From an uncultured Candidatus Saccharibacteria bacterium (GTDB lineage Bacteria; Patescibacteriota; Dojkabacteria; SC72): a stretch of DNA of 64,000 nucleotides. Both the position numbers and the translations under genes were made by a program. The notes under the pieces were generated by a model. The model was not told the DNA's origin and searched no databases. It saw only the letters and a program-made list of their open reading frames with translations. Below are positions 1 to 31,038 of this stretch, one piece after another; the first letter of the stretch is position 1; each line of letters opens with the position of its first letter. Location of the stretch: positions 185,663 to 249,662 of the forward strand of contig CAZEQZ010000002.1 in NCBI GenBank assembly GCA_964514595.1, written 5' to 3'.

Positions 1-1790
1 TCCAATTCATGTCCATGAATTGCCATCTCCACATCCTCGACTATGTTTACTCTTTCTGGATTCAATTCTATTTTGTCTCCCTCTAGTTTGGCACTACTTA
101 ATAAGGTATTTATCAATTTAATCTCGTTATCTACAGCTGTCTTTATCCTCTTTAGATACAATTCAAATTTATCCCTATTATTAAGAAGATCCTCTGTGAA
201 ATTCTCTAGAAGCTCTGCATTTAACTTAACAACAGTAGCAGGTGTTCTTAATTCATGACCCATTATGTCTATCATGTCAGACTCTTTTCTGCGAGCTTCT
301 TCTAATTGCTCAATCTTTTCTTGGAGCTCCTTGGTTTGCTCAGATACTTTCTGTTGAAGAGAAAGATTCAGATCCTGAACTTGACTATATAATATAGATC
401 TACTGAATGCGACAGAAAAACTTACTATGAGCTCCTCTAGATAGTCTATATCTTCGACTGTAAACGGATTCTTATTATTCTTCCTACCAAGTACTATCAC
501 TCCATTTAAATGGACCTTCCGATTAAGCGGAAGAATTATTTCTATATCATCTTTCTCCATAAATGAAAGGATCCTTTGAAGATACGGATTATCTATTTTT
601 GAGGACAGTAGTTCCTCTTTAGCTATAACCGTACTATGACCTATTTCATCCCAATAGTAGATAACTTGCAGAAGATTTCTGTTATCCAAAGGTCTATCTT
701 GGAATTCTCTCAACTTTTTATATAATATCGTTGCGTTATCACTGTCAAATATTATTACTCCAGATTTATCCAAATCAAATATAACATCTATAGCCTTTAA
801 TACCACTATCCCTAGTTTCTCGATATTTAATTCTGTACTAATACTTCTTAAAAATTTCTCCCTTATCTCCTCAGCTCGTTCACTTTTAAATCCAACCACT
901 GGATTCAATTTTCTGTTTAAAAAGTCCCCTAGAATAGAGTATAAGAGGACAAATAATATAGATGTTCCTATACCGATAACATATGTCAAAAACACATCTT
1001 TTGTTAGTTCAAATGTGGGGAGTAGATTGAGAAGTAATACAAAAAACAGGAATGGTATTACGGTAAGGGAAGCGTAGTACGTTAACTTTCCTAAAAGGAA
1101 TTTAACACTGAACAAGCGATGGCTAGTAACAGTGTATGTTGTGATTACACTAAATATACTAACTGCTACTGGTCCCCAAAATGCTGAAGCAGAGCTTTTT
1201 GTTATTATTGGCAGTATTACATTTGTAAAGATTGCAAATATAGATGCCAGGACCATTCCTATTGTTATATATGACATTTGCAAGTATTCTAAGCCTCTCG
1301 AGATCTTTCTTAATTTGAATATAGAGTAGATCAGGTAACCTATACCTATGACAACAAAAAATACATATATTAATGCTAATATTCCAAATTCCACAGCTGG
1401 ATAATTTGAGCCCTCTACCGCAATCATTTCCCTCACCAAAAAAGGAGTGAAGGCAAAAAGAGCCATTAAAAACCCAAGTATATTTATAACTTTTTGTAAT
1501 ATTGACTTTTCTTCATCGGCATATGATGAAAAGAATGAGGTATAACTAGCTACTGCTATTGCTGTCGTGGAGAAGGTCAATCTTGCAAACCAAATTGCTA
1601 TTTCTAAATTAGTTGTTCTAGTTATTGAGAATATAGAGAGAACCCAAAGTACGATACTAACATTGAATAGAAAGAGACTCTTTAAACCTTTCTCTCTTTT
1701 CCTTAAAAGTACCCAAACCAAGTACACATGTAGAAGAATTTGCAAGCCAAATAGTGTATATTCAAACACATTAGAAAAGTTACTATTTTA
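1..1790 (-). CDS. Sensor histidine kinase, partial (C-terminal HATPase part lies beyond window start); N-terminal multi-TM region, GAF-like domain, HisKA
   Basis: Minus-strand translation is open from about 1787 to position 1 with no stop. It contains the H-box MIDIMGHELRTPATV (plus coordinates about 250-285), a preceding coiled-coil linker, a GAF-like segment and at least six hydrophobic helices near the N-terminus. The start codon is uncertain (no ATG near the 5' end; possibly GTG/TTG). Confidence 0.6.
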
Positions 1791-1810
1791 ACTTTCTTAA
1801 TATACTATAT

Positions 1811-3451
1811 TTACCTTCTAACTTCCATCTTCTCTTGGGGAACTTGAACATAGTACAGGGACACATTCATTGGAAATTTCCCTGTATCATTTATATTTTC
1901 ATAAATATAATTCATCTTTAGATCTTTCTCATTTGGCCAAAGCTCACTTACTGCAATATCCAAAGAAACATCCTTGTTCTCAATCATATACTCCCTTATC
2001 CTATTTAGGATTTCATCCCTCTTAACATTATCAAATCCGTCTTCTGTGAAAAAATATTTTGCTCCTGTAAGTATAGTTCTTATGTTGTCAGGGTCCTCCC
2101 TATTTAATTCCACTCCTTCGACCTTCTCAAATTCCTTAACTCCTAAATTTTTCAATATCCTATTAAAAAGCATTACTCTATCGGGGGTAGCAGTAAAGAA
2201 AAGGATCCCCAAATTCTGGTCATACACTTCTTTATAAATTCTTTCTATAACTCTCTTGATAGATTCCAAACCTATTCTATTGTATTCCTCACCGTATGCA
2301 CTTATAGTCCCCAATCTCCTTATTTCTCCTGTCTTTCTGTTTTGAGGAATAAGTTTGTCAAAATCTTTTGGTAAAACAAACAAATCTCCAAACTCCCAAG
2401 AATCTAAATTGTAATCTTCCTCTATATCGAAAGTAGCTATAGCACCTGGGACATTCATCCCTATGATCGATGCTAAAACTGTAAGGCTTTTCTTGTGTTT
2501 TTTATCCTGTTCATCCACTCCTGTTACTATTGGATTTATCTTCTCAGAATAATTTCTCTCTCTAAACCTTTCCAATAACTCTCTTGCTGAAGATGCGAGG
2601 ATGTCCAAAGCAAAGGTTCCATTAACTTTGGGTTCTACTTCATTTATTTTTCTTAGTTGTAAAGTAAGGTTGTGTCCTAGATAATCACCTCTTTTTAAAT
2701 ATTCTACTTCAAACAAACCTGTTTGCTTTATAAAATCTAACATCTCTTGCTCTCCAAAAAGCTGACTGGTAGGAAGTATTTCTTCCTTATTTCTTCTTAT
2801 GGCATTTTTAGTTTCAGGATTCTTTATATTTTTTATAGATTCAGAGATCTCTCCTCTCTTTGATGCAGAAGAAACTTCTTTCATTAGTCCCTTCATAGTG
2901 TTCATTAAACCAACATTTTGCGTAGAAGATAGGGGATCCGTAATTATCAAAGTTCCATTCTCCTTTAATAATCTCCAAGCATTCAGTAATACTGTCCATC
3001 GTCTATATAATGCTTCCTCTTTATCAAGGTGACCTATCCCTGTTGTGACTGCATACCAGGAATTTTCTAATATTACTGTGTCTAACAACTCTCCACCCCC
3101 TCCTAGATACCTTTCTACCAGAAACGGATCCGATATATTCGTATTAAAGAAAGAGAAATTCTTATCCTCCGGTAGATTACGAGACATTTCAAAACTATTG
3201 TCAAAACCTACTAATCTATACATATCCTTGCCCCAAGCCTTATTAAACTTGATCAAGACCTCGGATATAGGTGCAGGACCACATCCAAACTCTGCGATTA
3301 ATGAAGGAGTACTTGGATTATTATATGCATGTTCTTGGGTTATTAATTCGACAATACTTAAATCCAATTCTTTTTTGGCACTTGCGGTTGTAACTTCATT
3401 GTATTCTGTTTTTCCATACTGTCCCCAGATTTCTTTTGCTTCAGTTTCCAT
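1811..3451 (-). CDS. Class I SAM-dependent methyltransferase domain (N-terminal about 200 aa, motif I AEFGCGPAP) fused to a C-terminal domain of about 340 aa with unknown function
   Basis: The 546-aa ORF has a Rossmann-type MTase glycine-rich motif (EFGCGPAP) followed by an acidic residue at the end of beta-2 and a post-I motif (TLIITDP). The C-terminal half has no recognisable motif. Confidence 0.5.
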   Translation of the reverse strand: METEAKEIWGQYGKTEYNEVTTASAKKELDLSIVELITQEHAYNNPSTPSLIAEFGCGPAPISEVLIKFNKAWGKDMYRLVGFDNSFEMSRNLPEDKNFSFFNTNISDPFLVERYLGGGGELLDTVILENSWYAVTTGIGHLDKEEALYRRWTVLLNAWRLLKENGTLIITDPLSSTQNVGLMNTMKGLMKEVSSASKRGEISESIKNIKNPETKNAIRRNKEEILPTSQLFGEQEMLDFIKQTGLFEVEYLKRGDYLGHNLTLQLRKINEVEPKVNGTFALDILASSARELLERFRERNYSEKINPIVTGVDEQDKKHKKSLTVLASIIGMNVPGAIATFDIEEDYNLDSWEFGDLFVLPKDFDKLIPQNRKTGEIRRLGTISAYGEEYNRIGLESIKRVIERIYKEVYDQNLGILFFTATPDRVMLFNRILKNLGVKEFEKVEGVELNREDPDNIRTILTGAKYFFTEDGFDNVKRDEILNRIREYMIENKDVSLDIAVSELWPNEKDLKMNYIYENINDTGKFPMNVSLYYVQVPQEKMEVRR

Positions 3452-8860: not shown

Positions 8861-9244
8861 TTATGTTTTTTCTAATTTACGCTTTAATCCACCAACAGGT
8901 TTACTTCTACCTTTCCTTGTTCTTGCATTATGCCTAGTTCTCTGTCCCCTAACCGGCAAACCTAATTTATGCCTTATACCTCTATAACTTCTGGTATCCT
9001 TCAGTCTCTTTACATCCCTAAATATTCCCTGTCTTAATTCTCCCTCTACTTTGTAATTTTCTTCTATGTATTTTCTTATTACATCCAACTCTGCTTCACT
9101 CATATCTTTAACAAACTTATTTGCATCCAACCTTGTTTTCTCACATAACTCCTTGGCCTTACTCTCTCCTATCCCATAGACGCTTAAAAGAGAGACCCAG
9201 AGTCTCTTCTCGTTTGGTATTTCTATTCCAGCTACCCTTGCCAT
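8861..9244 (-). CDS. rpsM: 30S ribosomal protein S13
   Basis: MARVAGIEIP... and RGIRHKLGLPVRGQRTRHNARTRKG. Confidence 0.92.
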   Translation of the reverse strand: MARVAGIEIPNEKRLWVSLLSVYGIGESKAKELCEKTRLDANKFVKDMSEAELDVIRKYIEENYKVEGELRQGIFRDVKRLKDTRSYRGIRHKLGLPVRGQRTRHNARTRKGRSKPVGGLKRKLEKT

Positions 9245-9269
9245 TTAATAATCGTATAACTTAATTAAA

Positions 9270-9386
9270 TTATCCCTGCCTTTGCTTATGTTTAGGATTC
9301 TTCTTACAATATACATAAACTCTTCTTTTCCTCTTAACAACGTAACAATCCGGACATCTTTTTTTTGCTGACGCTTGAACTTTCAT
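9270..9386 (-). CDS. rpmJ: 50S ribosomal protein L36 (38 aa, zinc ribbon), absent from the ORF track
   Basis: Minus-strand translation gives [38 protein letters not shown], lying between rpsM and infA in the canonical position. Confidence 0.85.
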
Positions 9387-9393
9387 AACTACA

Positions 9394-9627
9394 TTAATTC
9401 ATATATCTATATGTTATTCGCCCCTTCTCTTTGTCATATGGAGTCATCTCAATCCTAACCTTATCCCCCTCTAAGATACGGATATAATGCATTCTCATCT
9501 TTCCGGAGAGATATCCAACTACCTCATGCTTCTTCCCTTCTACATCAATCTCCACAACGAATTGAGTGTTAGGCAAACATTCCTTCACTATACCATCGAA
9601 TTCAAATACTTTTTTGCTTTCTTTCAT
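9394..9627 (-). CDS. infA: Translation initiation factor IF-1
   Basis: A 77-aa protein with an S1-like fold and an infA-like core ([45 protein letters not shown]). Confidence 0.9.
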
Positions 9628-9773
9628 AAGTATCCCTTTTTCTCTTTGTAAATAGAGTCCTCAGAATTATATCAAAGGAATACCTTTAATTCAACAAAAA
9701 TAGTTGAACCATGGTTGTTTTCACTAACAAAGGAACAGAGAAAGCATAACAAAAAAAAAGAATATTTACAAGA

Positions 9774-10418
9774 TCATAGTCCGAGAACTTTAACAACATT
9801 ATCATGTATCTCCTCTATCCCAGGATTAGCGTCTATTTCTATCAATATCCCTCTATTTCTATACTCCTCCAAGATGGGAGTTATCGTCCTGCCGTATTCC
9901 AAAAGCCTTTTCACTATCTTCTCGGGCTTGTCATCCTCCCTTTGAGAAAGAATCGTACCACATTTATCACAGTATCCATCCACTTTTTCCTTCTTATATT
10001 TAGTGTGGTATGTCGCATCACAATTAGTACACACCCTTCTTAAAGACATCCTTTCTATTGCAGCATCCTCTCCGAGGTTGAAATGTACAAAATAATCTAA
10101 TTTTTTACCACTTTGCTTGAGAAGATTATCAAACATAGGGATTTGCCCCTCTTCTCTTACAACGGAAACGAATACCCAATCTTTAGAATCATCATACTCG
10201 TTCAACCACCTGGACAACATTCTGTACACAAGTTCATTGGGAACAAACAATCCCTTTGACCAATATTGATGAGCCCTAATACCATCCATATCACCATTCG
10301 CATACATCTTCCGAAACATTTCACCTGTCCCAATACTTTGAAAATCATACTTGGATACAAGCAATTCAGCTTGAGTATCCTTACCTGAGCCAGACGGACC
10401 ATGAAAAAGAATAGTCAT
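9774..10418 (-). CDS. adk: Adenylate kinase with zinc-binding LID
   Basis: P-loop GPSGSGKDTQ; LID with CTNCDATYH...CDKCG. Confidence 0.92.
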   Translation of the reverse strand: MTILFHGPSGSGKDTQAELLVSKYDFQSIGTGEMFRKMYANGDMDGIRAHQYWSKGLFVPNELVYRMLSRWLNEYDDSKDWVFVSVVREEGQIPMFDNLLKQSGKKLDYFVHFNLGEDAAIERMSLRRVCTNCDATYHTKYKKEKVDGYCDKCGTILSQREDDKPEKIVKRLLEYGRTITPILEEYRNRGILIEIDANPGIEEIHDNVVKVLGL

Positions 10419-10528
10419 AGTTATACTACGTCGAGTTTATTTGAGAATATTGTATCACAAATAACTATCGAGTTAATGTCAACAAGAATTAATATGCTAT
10501 GGGCATTTAATATAAATTTAATTTTTAT

Positions 10529-11002
10529 ATGATAAAACTAAACATGAAGAGAATAAAAAATAAAAAGAATATGATTCTGCACGTTTACAACAGAGGGAAC
10601 CGGAAGGAAGAAATTTGCCTCGATAGAAAAGACTACATCTTTCTATACAATTTATTTTCTTACCACTTTCAACAAAATAATTTTGATTTATTGAGCTTTT
10701 GTATCTTACCAAACCATTACCATTTACTTGCTGTACAAAAAGGTAATGTCGACATTGCCGTCCCTATGCAGGGGATTGCAGCCAGATACACTAAATACTT
10801 CAACAAAAAATACGGCTATTGTGGACACTTATTTCAAGGTCCTTATCAATGTAAAACAATTCATAACATTTACCAGCTTCAAATAGCGTCCAATTACTTG
10901 AACAGCAATCTGCCCAAAACAAAGAGATCTTATCCATATTTATATTTTAATCAAACCATCACACATTTTTACATCTTGAATTTTCACCTAGCCTCTTTGT
11001 GA
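10529..11002 (+). mobile_element. IS200/IS605-family Y1 (HUH) tyrosine transposase, RAYT-like (REP-associated tyrosine transposase)
   Basis: LHVYNRGNRKEEIC motif; HUH motif LPNHYHLL; GHLFQGPYQCKTI; C-terminal helix with Tyr (ASNYLNSNLP). It lies on the strand opposite to the flanking secY and adk. Confidence 0.6.
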
Positions 11003-11081
11003 GCCCTCAAAGACCGATAGAATATTAAATTTCGACACTAAAATCTGTATAGTCCCCTACAAACCAACAAAACTCGCAAAG

Positions 11082-12347
11082 CTAGAGGTATTTATCGTAA
11101 CTCCTTACAGTCATCATAGACTCTATCTGTCTTTTGACATCCAATACTACCCCAACAACTATCAAGAGTCCTGTTCCAGAAAAAACCGCTGCGGAGATAA
11201 GCCCAGTTCTTACAAATACGTCGGGAAGAATAGATAATGTCGCTAAAAATATGGCACCTACCGCAGTTAGTCTGAAACTCACCCTCCTCAAATAGTTTGC
11301 CGTATTTTCTCCCGGTCTTATTCCTTGTATGAAAGCACCCTGTTTTTGAAGATTTTCAGCCAATTCCTCTGTTTTAAATACAACGGTTAGATAGAAGAAG
11401 GAGAATGCAACTATCAATAGAAACGACAGAGTATTAAAAAAATACGGATTTTCTAAAAGATTCATTACCGTATTTGTGAAATTTGTAATATTTGGATTAA
11501 TATCCTTACTTATTATGAATTTTCCTATCAGTTGAGGGAAAGATAGAAATGACATAGCAAATATGACCGGCATCACTCCTGATTGTGTTAGCTTGATGGG
11601 TATGTAGCTTTCCAAAGCTCCTCCCGCTCTTACTCTTCGGGAGTATTGTATTTTTATTTGCCTTTCTGCTTGGGTAATAATTATTACTGCTACAACAAGA
11701 ATTATAGAGAAAACAATGAAGACTGTTTTTTGAAAGGAATCCATAGTTAGGAAATTAGACCTCAAGGTTCCAGGGATACCCGAAAGTATACCAAGCATAA
11801 TAAGGTATGAAGATCCGCCTCCGAGACCATCTTCGGAGACTATCTCTCCAAACCACATCATCATTATAGATCCAGCTGTTAAAGTGGCTGACATTGTTAT
11901 CAATTCAAGAGTACCTAGAGTTTCTATTAGTCCAAATCCTCTTAGGGTGGAGTAAATTACAAAAGATTGGAGTATTGCTAATGGAACGGTCACTAATCTT
12001 GTGTACATAGATATTTTTCTTCTCCCCTCTGCTCCCTCTTTATTCAATTCTTCTAGCTGAGGAATAACTGTACCTAGTAATTGGAAAATGATGGAAGCAT
12101 TGATATATGGAGTTAACCCAATTGCCACTATTGATGCGGTTTCTAAGACTCCCCCAGAGACTGTGGATAGTATATCTCCAAATCCGGTGCCTTCAAATAA
12201 CTGTACAATTGCTTCAGCTGGGATTCCAGATACTGGAACAGCTGAGAGTATTCTATAAACAATAAGAATTAAAAGGGAGAAGATTATTTTTTCCCTTATT
12301 TCCTTAGTCCTAAATATGGCTTTAAATCTTTCCGTTATTTTGTTCAT
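11082..12347 (-). CDS. secY: Protein translocase subunit SecY
   Basis: A 421-aa protein with 10 TM helices and SecY family blocks; positioned after rplO. Confidence 0.92.
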   Translation of the reverse strand: MNKITERFKAIFRTKEIREKIIFSLLILIVYRILSAVPVSGIPAEAIVQLFEGTGFGDILSTVSGGVLETASIVAIGLTPYINASIIFQLLGTVIPQLEELNKEGAEGRRKISMYTRLVTVPLAILQSFVIYSTLRGFGLIETLGTLELITMSATLTAGSIMMMWFGEIVSEDGLGGGSSYLIMLGILSGIPGTLRSNFLTMDSFQKTVFIVFSIILVVAVIIITQAERQIKIQYSRRVRAGGALESYIPIKLTQSGVMPVIFAMSFLSFPQLIGKFIISKDINPNITNFTNTVMNLLENPYFFNTLSFLLIVAFSFFYLTVVFKTEELAENLQKQGAFIQGIRPGENTANYLRRVSFRLTAVGAIFLATLSILPDVFVRTGLISAAVFSGTGLLIVVGVVLDVKRQIESMMTVRSYDKYL

Positions 12348-12358
12348 TAGCTTTAAGA

Positions 12359-12802
12359 CTATTTAACACTACCTCCGGCCTTTACTATTTTCTCTTCCGC
12401 AACAGGAGACATCAAGATTCCCTCTATGGAAACTTTCTTTGAAATTTCTCCTCTTCCTAATATTTTTATTTCAGTACTATTTTTCTTAACCAAACCCTTT
12501 TCCTTCAAAATCTCGGGAGTTACTTTATCACCAGATTTAAAGTTTTCTGCCACTGTATCTATATTTATAACTTGGGTTTTTATATTAGATTTGCTTTTAA
12601 AGCCATTATATTTAGGCATTCTTCTATAAAAAGGGACATTCCCTCCTTCAAATGCAACTAAGGATTTGTGACCAGACCTTGATTTCTGTCCTTTGGTACC
12701 TCTGCCCACTGTATGTCCACCTACACCAGATCCGTATCCTCTTCCCAATCTTTTGGCCTTCTTTATTCTGTTTTTTCTTTTTGGAATGTTTTCTAGGTAC
12801 AT
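12359..12802 (-). CDS. rplO: 50S ribosomal protein L15
   Basis: GRGYGSGVGGHTVGRGTKGQKSRSG signature. Confidence 0.9.
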   Translation of the reverse strand: MYLENIPKRKNRIKKAKRLGRGYGSGVGGHTVGRGTKGQKSRSGHKSLVAFEGGNVPFYRRMPKYNGFKSKSNIKTQVINIDTVAENFKSGDKVTPEILKEKGLVKKNSTEIKILGRGEISKKVSIEGILMSPVAEEKIVKAGGSVK

Positions 12803-13443
12803 TATTTTCTATTTCTAACTTTAGTATTTCTGTCTTTACTTCTACCTTTGCTCTTCTTTTCTGACATTCTTTTGTTTCTTTCCTGTTTTCTCTTTTTTTC
12901 ATCTTTGATTTGCTTCTCCTTATCCATTTCTTCTTTCAGCACTATTCTCTCTCTCATTCTTTTCATTTTCTTAAGAACCCTATCTTTCTTTAGTTCTTGT
13001 AAAGCTTTGAATGTACAATATGCGTTTGCATTAGGTTCTGGGCTTCCAAGTATTTTGCCATATACATTATCTACTCCTGCCAATTCCAATACTGTTCTAA
13101 CAGAAGATCCTGCTATTATTCCTGTACCTGGTCTAGCTGGCCTTAGTAGAACTTGAGCTGCTCCATACTTATATAAAATCTCGTGTGGAATCGTATCTCC
13201 TATTAACTCTATTTTCTTAATAGCTTTGGTTGCCAATCGCTCTCCTTGCTCTATAGCACTTCTTACATCAGCTCCCCTTCCTAGTGCTACTCCTACTGAT
13301 CCCTTTCTATCACCTACTACTACTACTGTACTAAATCTCAATCTCTTCCCCCCTTTAGTTACCTTAGCGACTCTCCTCACTGGGAGGGCCCTTTTATCAA
13401 ATTCCTTATTTTCTTTATTTCTGTTTCTGAAATCTCTTTCCAT
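12802..13443 (-). CDS. rpsE: 30S ribosomal protein S5 with lysine-rich C-terminal extension of about 50 aa; there is no rpmD (L30) downstream
   Basis: S5 dsRBD and C-terminal domain (GKRLRFSTVVVVGDRKGSVGVALGRG...) then a KEEMDKEKQIKDEKKRKQERNKR... tail. Its stop overlaps the rplO start. Confidence 0.9.
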   Translation of the reverse strand: MERDFRNRNKENKEFDKRALPVRRVAKVTKGGKRLRFSTVVVVGDRKGSVGVALGRGADVRSAIEQGERLATKAIKKIELIGDTIPHEILYKYGAAQVLLRPARPGTGIIAGSSVRTVLELAGVDNVYGKILGSPEPNANAYCTFKALQELKKDRVLKKMKRMRERIVLKEEMDKEKQIKDEKKRKQERNKRMSEKKSKGRSKDRNTKVRNRK

Positions 13444-22246: not shown

Positions 22247-22364
22247 GAATATATTGTTAAAAAATTAAATATATTTTCTTTTAATACACAAATTCTCTCA
22301 AATTGAGAACCTGCGATGAATATTATCAAAAAGTAGTGATAGTTGCAAGAGGATTATACTATAT

Positions 22365-23192
22365 TTACCAGTTTTTCGTATCCTTTCTGTGCAACTCTAT
22401 TCCCTTTGTCACAATACTGACTGTTAACATTAGAAACATAACTGTACTTAAAGCAAAAACCCCCAGATCATACTGTGTAGCTATATATCCATATATGTCA
22501 TAGTAGTTGATGGGCAAGAAAAACATTACTACAGCGACCATTATTCCGATTATCCTTATCTCAGTAGGTCCAAACCAACCAAATGAATTCTGACATTTAT
22601 TTTCTACATATACCAACAAATCAACGTTTAACATCATTGCAAGGTATACGCAGACTAGGAGGAGGGAGATCTCTATCTTAACAAAACCTGATAGTCCCAA
22701 ACCTAATCCAAACATTATTATGACGATCGCATCTACTATTTTATCTATATAATATCCATAGTGAGGTCTTGTTTTCTTCCTATACCTAGCAATGCTTCCG
22801 TCAAATGAGTCTCCAAACCAATTAACTATTAATCCGATAATTACGAGAACAAGGTAGTATCTGTTAAAAAATCCTAATACAAATCCCGCTGATACCATAG
22901 CAACTCCTAAAATCCCTATTGCTGTCAAATGATCAGGATTCATCCACAATGGGATTCTTGGGCATATTATCTCCTTCAATTTTTCTTCGACCTTTGCTGT
23001 GATTGCAGTATTAACTGTATCCTGAGTATCTCTCTTATACCTTACCTTAAGATTCTCTAAGTCAAACACTATTTCACCCATCCTAATATCCTCTATCCAA
23101 TGCCTTATCTCATCTACAACATTTTGAAATTTACCTTCCCTAAGGTATTCATTTATCTTGTTTATTCTATTTTTAGAGAATTTTTCTGACAT
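22365..23192 (-). CDS. CDP-alcohol phosphatidyltransferase family membrane protein with cytoplasmic N-terminal extension of about 80 aa
   Basis: DSFDGSIARYRKKTRPHYGYYIDKIVD matches D-G-x2-A-R-x8-G-x3-D-x3-D. The remainder has six or more TM helices. Confidence 0.7.
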   Translation of the reverse strand: MSEKFSKNRINKINEYLREGKFQNVVDEIRHWIEDIRMGEIVFDLENLKVRYKRDTQDTVNTAITAKVEEKLKEIICPRIPLWMNPDHLTAIGILGVAMVSAGFVLGFFNRYYLVLVIIGLIVNWFGDSFDGSIARYRKKTRPHYGYYIDKIVDAIVIIMFGLGLGLSGFVKIEISLLLVCVYLAMMLNVDLLVYVENKCQNSFGWFGPTEIRIIGIMVAVVMFFLPINYYDIYGYIATQYDLGVFALSTVMFLMLTVSIVTKGIELHRKDTKNW

Positions 23193-29824: not shown

Positions 29825-29859
29825 TATATATGAATAGTAAAAAGTAATTTAAAGGAATA

Positions 29860-31038
29860 CTATATTTTTACCAAGTATCTTGCACTTACCCACCCTACTA
29901 AATCAGCTCCATACTGTACCTGATACCAACCTTCCTCCTCCCCTAGTAAAATGAAGACAGTACCATCATCTGCACTGTCCAATATTTTACAACTTGACCA
30001 CCTACACTCTCTAATATTCACGAAATTATATGTCGGAGAAGATACTTCCACTAATTGCTTCTCTCCCCGAGAGATTTCAAATTTAACATCAAAAGAGGAT
30101 CCTTCAAATGGCTTTCCTTCAAACTTAAGCAATTCGAACGATTCAGTAGCTTCTCCTAATAAGACTCTTGCTTCCAATTCAAACTCCACCTCCACGGATT
30201 CTCCAGGTAGTATGTTCTTATCCGATACACTCACAGGCTTACTAAAACTTTCCCATTCCTGATTTATTGCAAAGCTACTCTCCTTCCCATCTTTTACAGA
30301 TATATATACTGGATCCCTGTCTGTGAACCAAATAAAGTCATTATTATTCTTAAATTTCACCTTCACCTTTAGCCTTTCTCCTATCTCCAATTGCTCTTCA
30401 TGCACCACCTCTTCTATTCTCGCTCGATATTCTAGGTTCTCCGCTTCATATCCTTCCCAGCCTGAAAGTACTTCCAATACTGAATTAGCAAACTCTCCAG
30501 ATATTTCCTCAGCTGTTATGGTAGATAGTTTTCCTTCTTCCTGGTTAATATTTAGCTTTACTACAGAAAGTTGAGATATTCCCCAATTAGAGGATATCTC
30601 CTCTACCATTTGATTTAAAGAATCGGTAGCCCTATTTGAAAGTATGGAGTTGTTTGACATATATCCTATTGTGACTGCACCTTCCACTTCTCTAAGCTCT
30701 GGATTAGCACCAACACCACCCTCTTTGCCTTGATATATTATCCCATTCTCATCAAGGAGGTATGTATATGGGAGGTCGGAGAAGTGTAGTCTGGTTATAC
30801 TGTAGTAGTAGAGAGTCTTAACCCATTTTGCAGGATCTCTAAGTAGTATGTCGGAATCTGTTGTTACTTGAGTTATGTATATCTTAACTGGATTACTGTA
30901 TATGGTATTAGACTTGTCTGATAGTGAAGTGTCAAATTTCTGACTTTGCGTTGAGTAGTATGAAAATGCCAAAGCAGATGTTGGCTTAAATAGTGCCAAA
31001 GTAAGAAGGAGTGTCAAAAAAAGAATTGTTTTCTTCAT
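29860..31038 (-). CDS. Secreted protein with a degenerate PGRP/amidase_2-like domain and C-terminal bacterial SH3 (SH3b) domain
   Basis: Signal peptide MKKTILFLTLLLTLALFKPTSALA. YTYLLDENGIIYQGKEGGVGAN...TIGYMSNN resembles the amidase_2 core, but the Zn-ligand His residues are replaced. The C-terminal GWYQVQYGADLVGWVSARYL is SH3b-like. Confidence 0.35.
   Translation of the reverse strand: MKKTILFLTLLLTLALFKPTSALAFSYYSTQSQKFDTSLSDKSNTIYSNPVKIYITQVTTDSDILLRDPAKWVKTLYYYSITRLHFSDLPYTYLLDENGIIYQGKEGGVGANPELREVEGAVTIGYMSNNSILSNRATDSLNQMVEEISSNWGISQLSVVKLNINQEEGKLSTITAEEISGEFANSVLEVLSGWEGYEAENLEYRARIEEVVHEEQLEIGERLKVKVKFKNNNDFIWFTDRDPVYISVKDGKESSFAINQEWESFSKPVSVSDKNILPGESVEVEFELEARVLLGEATESFELLKFEGKPFEGSSFDVKFEISRGEKQLVEVSSPTYNFVNIRECRWSSCKILDSADDGTVFILLGEEEGWYQVQYGADLVGWVSARYLVKI

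Follow-up and report, generated by a model that had tools for sequence, protein, structure and literature searches.

How does a transposase-like gene come to lie between secY and adk, a very conserved bacterial gene junction, and what has it become there? The question is raised by a 64-kb stretch of contig CAZEQZ010000002.1 (hereafter the window, meaning the whole stretch analysed), part of a genome of roughly 760 kb. In the window, adk and secY sit in a long minus-strand run of ribosomal protein genes, and a gene for a Y1 HUH enzyme lies antisense between the two, as a preliminary description of this DNA had reported. The reading favoured here, with a probability of about 0.62, is that the gene is what remains, after long residence at this site, of a small Y1 element with flanking inverted repeats, a 'TIRtron'-like unit belonging to the RAYT/TIRYT class. 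The element would have entered a short secY–adk spacer in the ancestor of a subclade of Dojkabacteria (WS6, Patescibacteria) and would have been inherited with the locus since, with purifying selection acting on its protein, whose catalytic HUH and Tyr residues are intact. Loss would have occurred repeatedly, by deletion and through replacement by empty alleles in homologous recombination, and in at least one lineage (locus L130) a related element in the opposite orientation appears to hold the site. The gene and its two neighbours are as follows.

10529..11002, plus strand: Y1 HUH gene, TnpA_Y1 class 2, RAYT/TIRYT-like (open reading frame, Pfam PF01797, identical protein P0001, structure model)
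9774..10418, minus strand: adk, first gene of the downstream unit adk-infA-rpmJ-rpsM onward (Pfam ADK and ADK_lid)
11082..12347, minus strand: secY, at the end of the upstream spc-type unit and convergent with Y1 (Pfam SecY, 313.7 bits)

Related loci were gathered through Y1 homologues, SecY homologues and a SecY scan of metagenome contigs, and SecY, Adk and Y1 were placed in each locus by tblastn. The proteins nearest to the window Y1 protein belong to metagenome-assembled genomes of Candidatus Dojkabacteria. The secY–adk spacers of relatives, to which the preliminary description had pointed, fall into two kinds among loci whose SecY is 66–88% identical to that of the window: about 22 distinct loci are filled, with a gap of 655–728 nt that contains a Y1 gene, and about 23 are empty, with a gap of 14–82 nt and no Y1 gene. 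That description had also considered the possibility that all relatives carry the gene at this site, which would have marked a domesticated gene; about half do, and the other half lack it. The Y1 gene lies antisense between adk and secY in L001–L012 and in many metagenome loci, L130 being the only filled locus with a sense-oriented copy, and the orthologues at the same site are 38–58% identical to the window protein. The open reading frame (ORF) is intact in 19 of the 20 filled loci with a full-length SecY, the exception being L129. More distant loci, such as L133 (SecY 55% identical) and other loci of the candidate phyla radiation (CPR), have no Y1 gene at the junction. Since these outgroups keep secY and adk adjacent, the comparison indicates that the ancestral junction was uninterrupted and that the Y1 gene arrived by insertion, an origin that the preliminary description had already proposed.

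Three observations concern the records themselves. In L129, the Y1 orthologue (1959–2321) has a one-base frameshift just past the catalytic Tyr codon, a sign of genuine decay or else of misassembly; the copies in L145 and L124, which are nearly identical to it, are intact. L004 (coverage 0.5x) has the same adk–Y1–secY context and a secY with many apparent frameshifts (47% identity), and was treated as a poor assembly and not as a different context. The records of L008, L009 and L010 are titled 'uncultured Candidatus Saccharibacteria', yet their SecY proteins (72–76% identical to that of the window) cluster within the Dojkabacteria loci, and the titles are likely to be automatic mislabelling.

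The history of the gene follows that of the locus to a considerable degree. A neighbour-joining tree of the Y1 protein gives the same clades as the SecY tree, and the pairwise identities of the two proteins are correlated (r=0.77). In five close pairs in which synonymous divergence (dS) is unsaturated, dS of the Y1 gene is about that of secY and adk; the values are 0.221 versus 0.226 and 0.050 for L011–L012, and 0.78 versus 0.59 and 0.80, and 1.34 versus 1.00 and 1.23, for further example pairs. The ratio of non-synonymous to synonymous divergence (dN/dS) in the same five pairs is 0.06–0.12 for Y1, compared with 0.025–0.05 for secY, and the Y1 protein changes at two to four times the rate of its neighbours. 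The G+C content of the gene (0.325, compared with 0.361 for the window) resembles that of the host. On these comparisons Y1 is a coding gene under purifying selection that has diverged together with its neighbours.

Inheritance has been accompanied by loss. The presence of Y1 is patchy on the SecY tree, and bootstrapped nucleotide trees place empty loci within filled clades: filled L109 with empty L113 (100%), filled L008 and L121 with empty L119 (99%), and filled L009 with empty L111 (100%), the last pair within a group that also includes L108. The gene is missing from about half of the related genomes, including some close to carriers, and such frequent, repeated loss suggests that Y1 is dispensable. 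Homology to the filled allele at its adk-proximal edge, promoter included, persists in the longer empty spacers (61–82 nt), which would fit deletion scars; the shortest (14–36 nt) lack the promoter. Identical empty boundaries in L113 and L119 had prompted the idea of precise excision, which was set aside, as empty alleles also spread by homologous recombination, as seen in L111 and L105.

The case of L111 is the clearest. Sliding-window comparison shows that its secY and adk are L009-like (94–100%), whereas positions 1456–1590, which cover the spacer and the initial 60 nt of adk, agree with the empty locus L105 at 97% and with L009 at only 76%. Because an L105-like spacer stands amid L009-like secY and adk, the empty allele of L111 is best explained as an import by homologous recombination. 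The adk gene of L108 also carries an L105-like patch. The secY–adk junction thus looks like a recombination hot spot. In L131, the secY side is nearer to L130, while Y1 and adk are nearer to L011; the signal is modest, and this mosaic hints at transfer of a filled allele as well.

The identity of the protein was addressed by motif, profile and structure. The ORF at 10529–11002 allows at most 157 aa. An identical database protein, P0001, has 152 aa and is annotated from M6 (ATG at 10544), and the orthologues begin at the equivalent position in the alignment; the ATG at 10544 is therefore probably the start, giving 152 aa. The protein matches PF01797 (Y1_Tnp; Pfam description 'Transposase IS200 like') with 40.9 bits against a cut-off of 23 (E=2.7e-10), over profile positions 3–120 of 121, so that the family membership claimed in the preliminary description holds, and the Pfam search found no second domain. 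The HUH and GHLFQGPY motifs and the C-terminal Tyr named there are also present: in a 28-sequence alignment (A1), H63, H65, the GHLFQG segment and Tyr123 are invariant. Thirty-four residues remain after the catalytic Tyr. The codons of the two catalytic motifs are placed as follows.

10715..10723, plus strand: HUH codons H63-Y64-H65 within PNHYHLL (sequence; H63 and H65 invariant in A1)
10895..10897, plus strand: catalytic Tyr codon Y123, motif Y-L-N-S-N (invariant A1 column; Tyr helix of 4ER8)

The AlphaFold2 model of the protein (predicted local distance difference test, pLDDT, 87.8; predicted template-modelling score, pTM, 0.82) was matched by Foldseek with probability 1.00 to the TnpA proteins of IS608, ISDra2 and IS200 and to 4ER8, the TnpA-REP of E. 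coli. The last gave the top superposition, with a template-modelling (TM) score of 0.65 and a root mean square deviation of 3.6 A over 140 columns, and it is also the top sequence-profile match in the PDB (E=2.8e-5), in which Y123 aligns with its Tyr helix. As modelled, the protein has a TnpA-type alpha/beta fold.

In the TnpA_Y1 scheme (Table 1 of Quentin et al., 2018; PMC6006769), subclass 1.1, the TnpA of IS200/IS605, has the signature DH[VI]H and Y---Q, while subclass 2.1 has the motifs NH[YF]H, FQ and Y[IV]xxNP and typically a C-terminal helix-turn-helix (HTH) domain, namely Bac_DnaA_C, HTH_23 or HTH_28. Subclass 2.1 corresponds to the TIRYTs, or 'TIRtrons', which are flanked by terminal inverted repeats (TIRs); most TIRYTs, though not all, have the motif GGGGWSAS in these repeats (Di Nocera et al., 2013; PMC3733652). 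It also corresponds to the Group 1 RAYTs of Bertels, which are described as low-copy, patchy and housekeeping-like, and are not associated with repetitive extragenic palindromic (REP) sequences (PMC5581495). Because its NHYH, FQ and Y..xN(P) motifs match, the window protein would belong to TnpA_Y1 class 2, nearest to subclass 2.1, TIRYTs and Bertels Group 1. In place of the class 2 Y---NP it has Y---NL, the Pro having been lost; most orthologues have Y[IL]xxNP.

The resemblance to TIRYTs extends to the motifs PNHYH, GHLFQG and Y[IL]xxN(P), to low copy number with patchy occurrence, loss and no REP hairpins, and, most plainly in relatives, to inverted repeats that bracket the gene, some of them overlapping its 3' end. 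Such bracketing repeats are clear in L098, L120, L124, L129, L010, L011, L012 and L130 and in the elements of L174 and L015, and weak in the window. The window gene differs from TIRYTs in that its protein has only 152–157 aa and lacks the C-terminal HTH of subclass 2.1, in that its repeats lack GGGGWSAS (the closest sequence, GGGGACTA at 11047–11057, agrees at 6/8 positions), in its Patescibacteria host, which is not mentioned in PMC6006769, and in its fixed place inside the ribosomal superoperon.

Among solved structures, RAYT/TnpA-REP (4ER8) gives the best profile and structure match, and the two share a class 2 Y1 HUH core. As with RAYT genes, there is effectively one copy of the window gene, its inheritance is vertical and purifying selection acts on it, but it has often been lost. 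It has NHYH where TnpA-REP has DHLH, no adjacent GTAG-tagged GC-rich REP hairpins and no dispersed REP/REPIN population in the 64-kb window, and it scores 27.9 bits with the NCBIfam model NF047646 (REP_Tyr_transpos), below the cut-off of 80.

With the TnpA of IS608, ISDra2 and IS200 the protein shares the fold, the HUH motif and a single Tyr on a C-terminal helix, and with this catalytic architecture presumably the same single-strand DNA chemistry. The differences are more numerous: NHYH and Y---N in place of DH[VI]H and Y---Q, no subterminal hairpin ends, no tnpB partner (the sole neighbours are adk and secY), no multiple identical copies in the 64-kb window, and retention of one site across species-level and deeper divergence. 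Judged by its motifs and flanks, the gene does not belong to the IS200/IS605 transposases as strictly defined, and the 'IS200' part of the earlier label does not fit.

The spacers measure 110 nt between adk and Y1 (125 nt if the gene begins at M6) and 79 nt between Y1 and secY, close to the 110 and 80 nt first reported, and, in agreement with the preliminary description, GC-rich REP-type hairpins (GTAG/GTGG guide plus GC-rich stem) are absent from both; neither contains a convincing subterminal hairpin. When filled and empty loci are compared, the insert spans from just past the secY stop codon to between 0 and about 25 nt upstream of the extended -10 element of adk. The ends are approximate, because even the closest filled/empty pairs differ at synonymous sites throughout, and neither a target-site duplication nor a TTAC-like target could be called from these pairs. 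In filled loci, a nested inverted-repeat arrangement is found, in the Y1 direction U1, U2, ORF, D1 and D2. In the orthologues, U1 (GACTATAT) abuts the adk -10 element and U2 (TTTAATATTCTATAGGG) lies 25–35 nt further in; D1 (CCTATAGAATATTAAA), which often overlaps the Y1 stop codon, is followed by D2 (ATATAGTC). The corresponding features of the window are these.

10449..10476, minus strand: candidate adk promoter, TTAACT, 16 nt, TG-n-TACAAT (extended -10; consensus scan)
10462..10470, plus strand: box U1, TAACTATCG, degenerate in the window (GACTATAT in orthologues), adjoining the adk -10 (locus comparison)
10489..10503, plus strand: box U2, TTAATATGCTATGGG, 26–40 nt upstream of the ORF, inverted partner of D1 (zero-mismatch match to TTAATATNCTATNGG)
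11014..11028, minus strand: box D1, TTAATATTCTATCGG, 12 nt past the Y1 stop, inverted copy of U2 (zero-mismatch match to TTAATATNCTATNGG)
11047..11057, minus strand: box D2, GGGGACTATAC, with TATAGT on the plus strand at 11048–11053, mirroring U1 (conserved as ATATAGTC in orthologues)
10432..10443, plus strand: adk-side arm of the outer inverted repeat, CGAGTTTATTTG, weak in the window (10/12 complementary)
11065..11076, plus strand: secY-side arm of the outer inverted repeat, CAACAAAACTCG, beginning 6 nt from the secY stop (pairs with the adk-side arm)

Zero-mismatch matches to TTAATATNCTATNGG occur only twice in the window, at U2 and D1, where they flank the ORF. U2 is conserved upstream of the orthologues, is also present in the elements of L130, L174 and L015, and is possibly the Y1 promoter or a binding site. 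Elsewhere the repeats are much stronger: in local alignments of inverted repeats, L098, L120, L124 and L129, whose repeats reach up to about 65 nt, were equalled by 0–3 of 500 shuffles (L098 by 0/500). The sequence of the outer arms, one next to the secY stop and one next to the adk start, varies from clade to clade. The arms extend to 24 nt with one mismatch in L130, match at 11/11 positions in L010 and at 9/9 in L011, L012 and L131, and are significant in L010, L011, L012, L131 and L108. The combined p over 13 lineages is 0.0016, the lineages not being fully independent. The 24-nt repeat of the sense-oriented L130 element sits at the position equivalent to the adk-side outer arm.

Some of these boxes may be promoter elements instead of, or besides, protein-binding sites, since TATAGT is also the core of a 14-mer found upstream of genes. 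This sequence, GGTAAATATAGTAT, occurs three times in the window (1797–1811, 22351–22365 and 29852–29866), each time intergenic and just upstream of a minus-strand gene, and probably represents the promoter -10 region of this organism. Upstream of adk, TGnTAnnAT is conserved in all loci that carry Y1 and in the empty spacers of 61–82 nt; an extended -10 promoter at the element edge is predicted from this consensus match.

That the family has been mobile is indicated by a related terminal-repeat element that occupies two different loci. At L130 (3424–4079), a sense-oriented Y1 element in the secY–adk spacer is bracketed by the 24-nt inverted repeat, of which the right copy encodes the first adk codons (MMNQVGV). 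Its Y1 protein, P0019, shares at most 44% identity with the antisense residents, the one in its SecY sister L131 among them, and 54% with P0022, the gene of which lies between MATCAP-like and RimK-like genes. The elements of L130, L174 and L015, with terminal repeats of 13–24 nt, align from terminal repeat to terminal repeat (core ACCTGGT) at the two loci. Inversion between flank repeats was considered as the source of the sense copy and rejected, given the 54% identity of P0019 to the other-locus element against no more than 44% to the Y1 proteins of its neighbours. On this alignment, the Y1 family has moved.

Other CPR paralogues of Y1 are flanked by GC-rich REP-like hairpins or inverted repeats, REP hairpins being found around L019, L021, L026 and L034. 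A Dojkabacteria paralogue at L043 (2740–3550) has a direct repeat of about 80 nt on each side (...GCTATATGCAAATTTCTTAATCCAGAAGCAGGTTAAG...GTGCCAGACCC), perhaps a target duplication or a second copy of a gene end, and the paralogue at L013 (4447–4600) lies immediately upstream of an apparent tRNA gene (GGGCCTGTAGCTCAGTTTGG...).

Taken together with the known systems, these features suggest how the resident gene might work. The Y1 protein would be an active single-strand DNA nicking and joining enzyme, a biochemical role suggested by analogy, and its likeliest substrates would be the nested boxes U1/U2 upstream and D1/D2 downstream of its own gene, in parallel with TnpA-REP and REPs and with TIRYTs and their terminal repeats. 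Transcription of the gene is probably driven by its own promoter-like box U2 and would meet read-through from secY head-on, so that expression would be low. The genes adk, infA, rpmJ, rpsM and onward would depend on the extended -10 promoter at the edge of the element that faces adk; because they would be transcribed from that promoter, the superoperon would be split at this point. No intrinsic terminator was found after secY, and Rfam gave no match over 9000–12600 at E up to 1.

Three further observations concern the surrounding genes. The gene rpmJ (L36, 38 aa) lies at 9245–9394 on the minus strand between infA and rpsM and is below the size of the ORF list. The adk–infA gap (9627–9774) is only 147 nt in the window, so that no map gene lies there; extra DNA is present there in L011 (about 0.8 kb, 2423–3212) and L012 (about 2.4 kb, 782–3212). 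The ribosomal protein S5 gene at 12802–13443 encodes a protein of 213 aa, extended at both the N and the C terminus by lysine/arginine-rich sequence, and its stop overlaps the L15 start at 12802.

Several findings weigh against a long-resident, TIRtron-like remnant. The C-terminal HTH that is a hallmark of subclass 2.1 is missing from the Pfam search of the Y1 protein. The inverted repeats of the window itself are weak: the 13/15-nt box pair was equalled in 36 of 500 shuffles (p about 0.07), and the 10/12 outer arms fall short of significance when taken by themselves (p about 0.3). Flank boxes and their k-mers are not above chance in the window (blastn-short, k-mer counts and pattern searches), and thus no dispersed copies of the boxes were seen, though this search covered 64 kb of the roughly 760-kb genome. 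The trees were built by neighbour-joining alone, from one or two genes. L130 and L131 have SecY proteins that are 89% identical but Y1 proteins that are only 44% identical, while the Y1 proteins of L131 and L011 are 79% identical although their SecY proteins are just 78% identical; these anomalies show horizontal movement by recombination, so that 'vertical' inheritance is an approximation.

The alternative that survives best, although it is improbable, is that Y1 is fully domesticated with a function tied to the locus, for example binding to U1/D2 that regulates the promoter of adk and the alpha operon, or an antisense transcript into secY. Strong purifying selection and long residence at one site would agree with this, as would the position of U1 within the adk promoter spacer and of the mirrored TATAGT box, which faces secY; genes of the RAYT class have, moreover, been described as housekeeping-like (PMC5581495). 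A locus-tied function is harder to reconcile with the absence of the gene from about half of the related genomes, some close to carriers, with the presence of the adk promoter in empty alleles as well, and with protein evolution two to four times faster than that of the neighbours.

Slightly less probable again is a homing-like selfish element, in which the Y1 nuclease would recognize the empty secY–adk spacer, or DNA taken up from relatives, and promote its own copying into that site in a cycle of gain and loss. A wider form of the same idea, which is no more probable, has a site-restricted selfish or operon-remodelling Y1 element entering the secY–adk junction of Dojkabacteria repeatedly and in either orientation; its outward promoters would capture transcription of adk and the alpha operon, and a long-lived presence/absence polymorphism would be shuffled by homologous recombination. 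Patchy presence at a single site, recombination tracts that end at the spacer, two related element types in the same spacer in opposite orientations, and the conservation of an intact nuclease would all agree with such an element, and the L130 type is closer to the other-locus element (54%) than to any resident type (at most 44%). However, congruence with the host tree at clade level and equal dS fit simple co-inheritance, the one transfer that could be resolved moved an empty allele, and no conserved target hairpin was seen in the short empty spacers. Homing is, moreover, not known for any Y1 enzyme.

It is very improbable that the gene is part of an IS200/IS605-type insertion sequence that is active at present and entered the operon recently by transposition. 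The Pfam match to 'Transposase IS200 like', the intact catalytic residues and the occurrence of the wider family at different loci are compatible with it. On the other side, tblastn found no second Y1 copy in the window, about 22 orthologue loci, 38–58% identical, share the site with dS like that of their neighbours and dN/dS near 0.1, NHYH and Y---N replace DH[VI]H and Y---Q, subterminal hairpins and tnpB are absent, and the composition of the gene has converged on that of the host. Intact ORFs, congruent trees, matching dS, host-like composition and the single copy in the window together disfavour recent activity, and the 'active mobile element' of the preliminary description is not borne out. 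PADLOC (defence) and PHROGs (phage) families gave no matches either. Finally, a spurious ORF or decaying pseudogene, to which the faster evolution and the L129 frameshift after the Tyr codon might point, can be practically dismissed, as the ORF is intact in 19 of 20 filled loci with full-length SecY, dN/dS is about 0.1, the catalytic residues are invariant and the predicted fold is confident.

The preferred explanation of the Y1 gene therefore remains a TIRtron-like element of which a remnant has long resided at the site. Among the options listed in the preliminary description, a domesticated or tolerated RAYT-like gene has the best support, with the qualification that the gene is dispensable and has been repeatedly lost. 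The literature that was searched contains no paper on a Y1 gene between secY and adk. On this reading, a very conserved bacterial gene junction can hold a transposase-derived gene over long evolutionary time in a reduced CPR genome, and the downstream ribosomal and RNA-polymerase genes would then be driven by a promoter of their own. A compact, HTH-less, inverted-repeat-flanked Y1 lineage from Patescibacteria would be added to the RAYT/TIRYT class. With roughly half of the loci filled and half empty, the junction offers a natural experiment on the role of a 'domesticated' Y1 nuclease and on its effect on the expression of the host operon.

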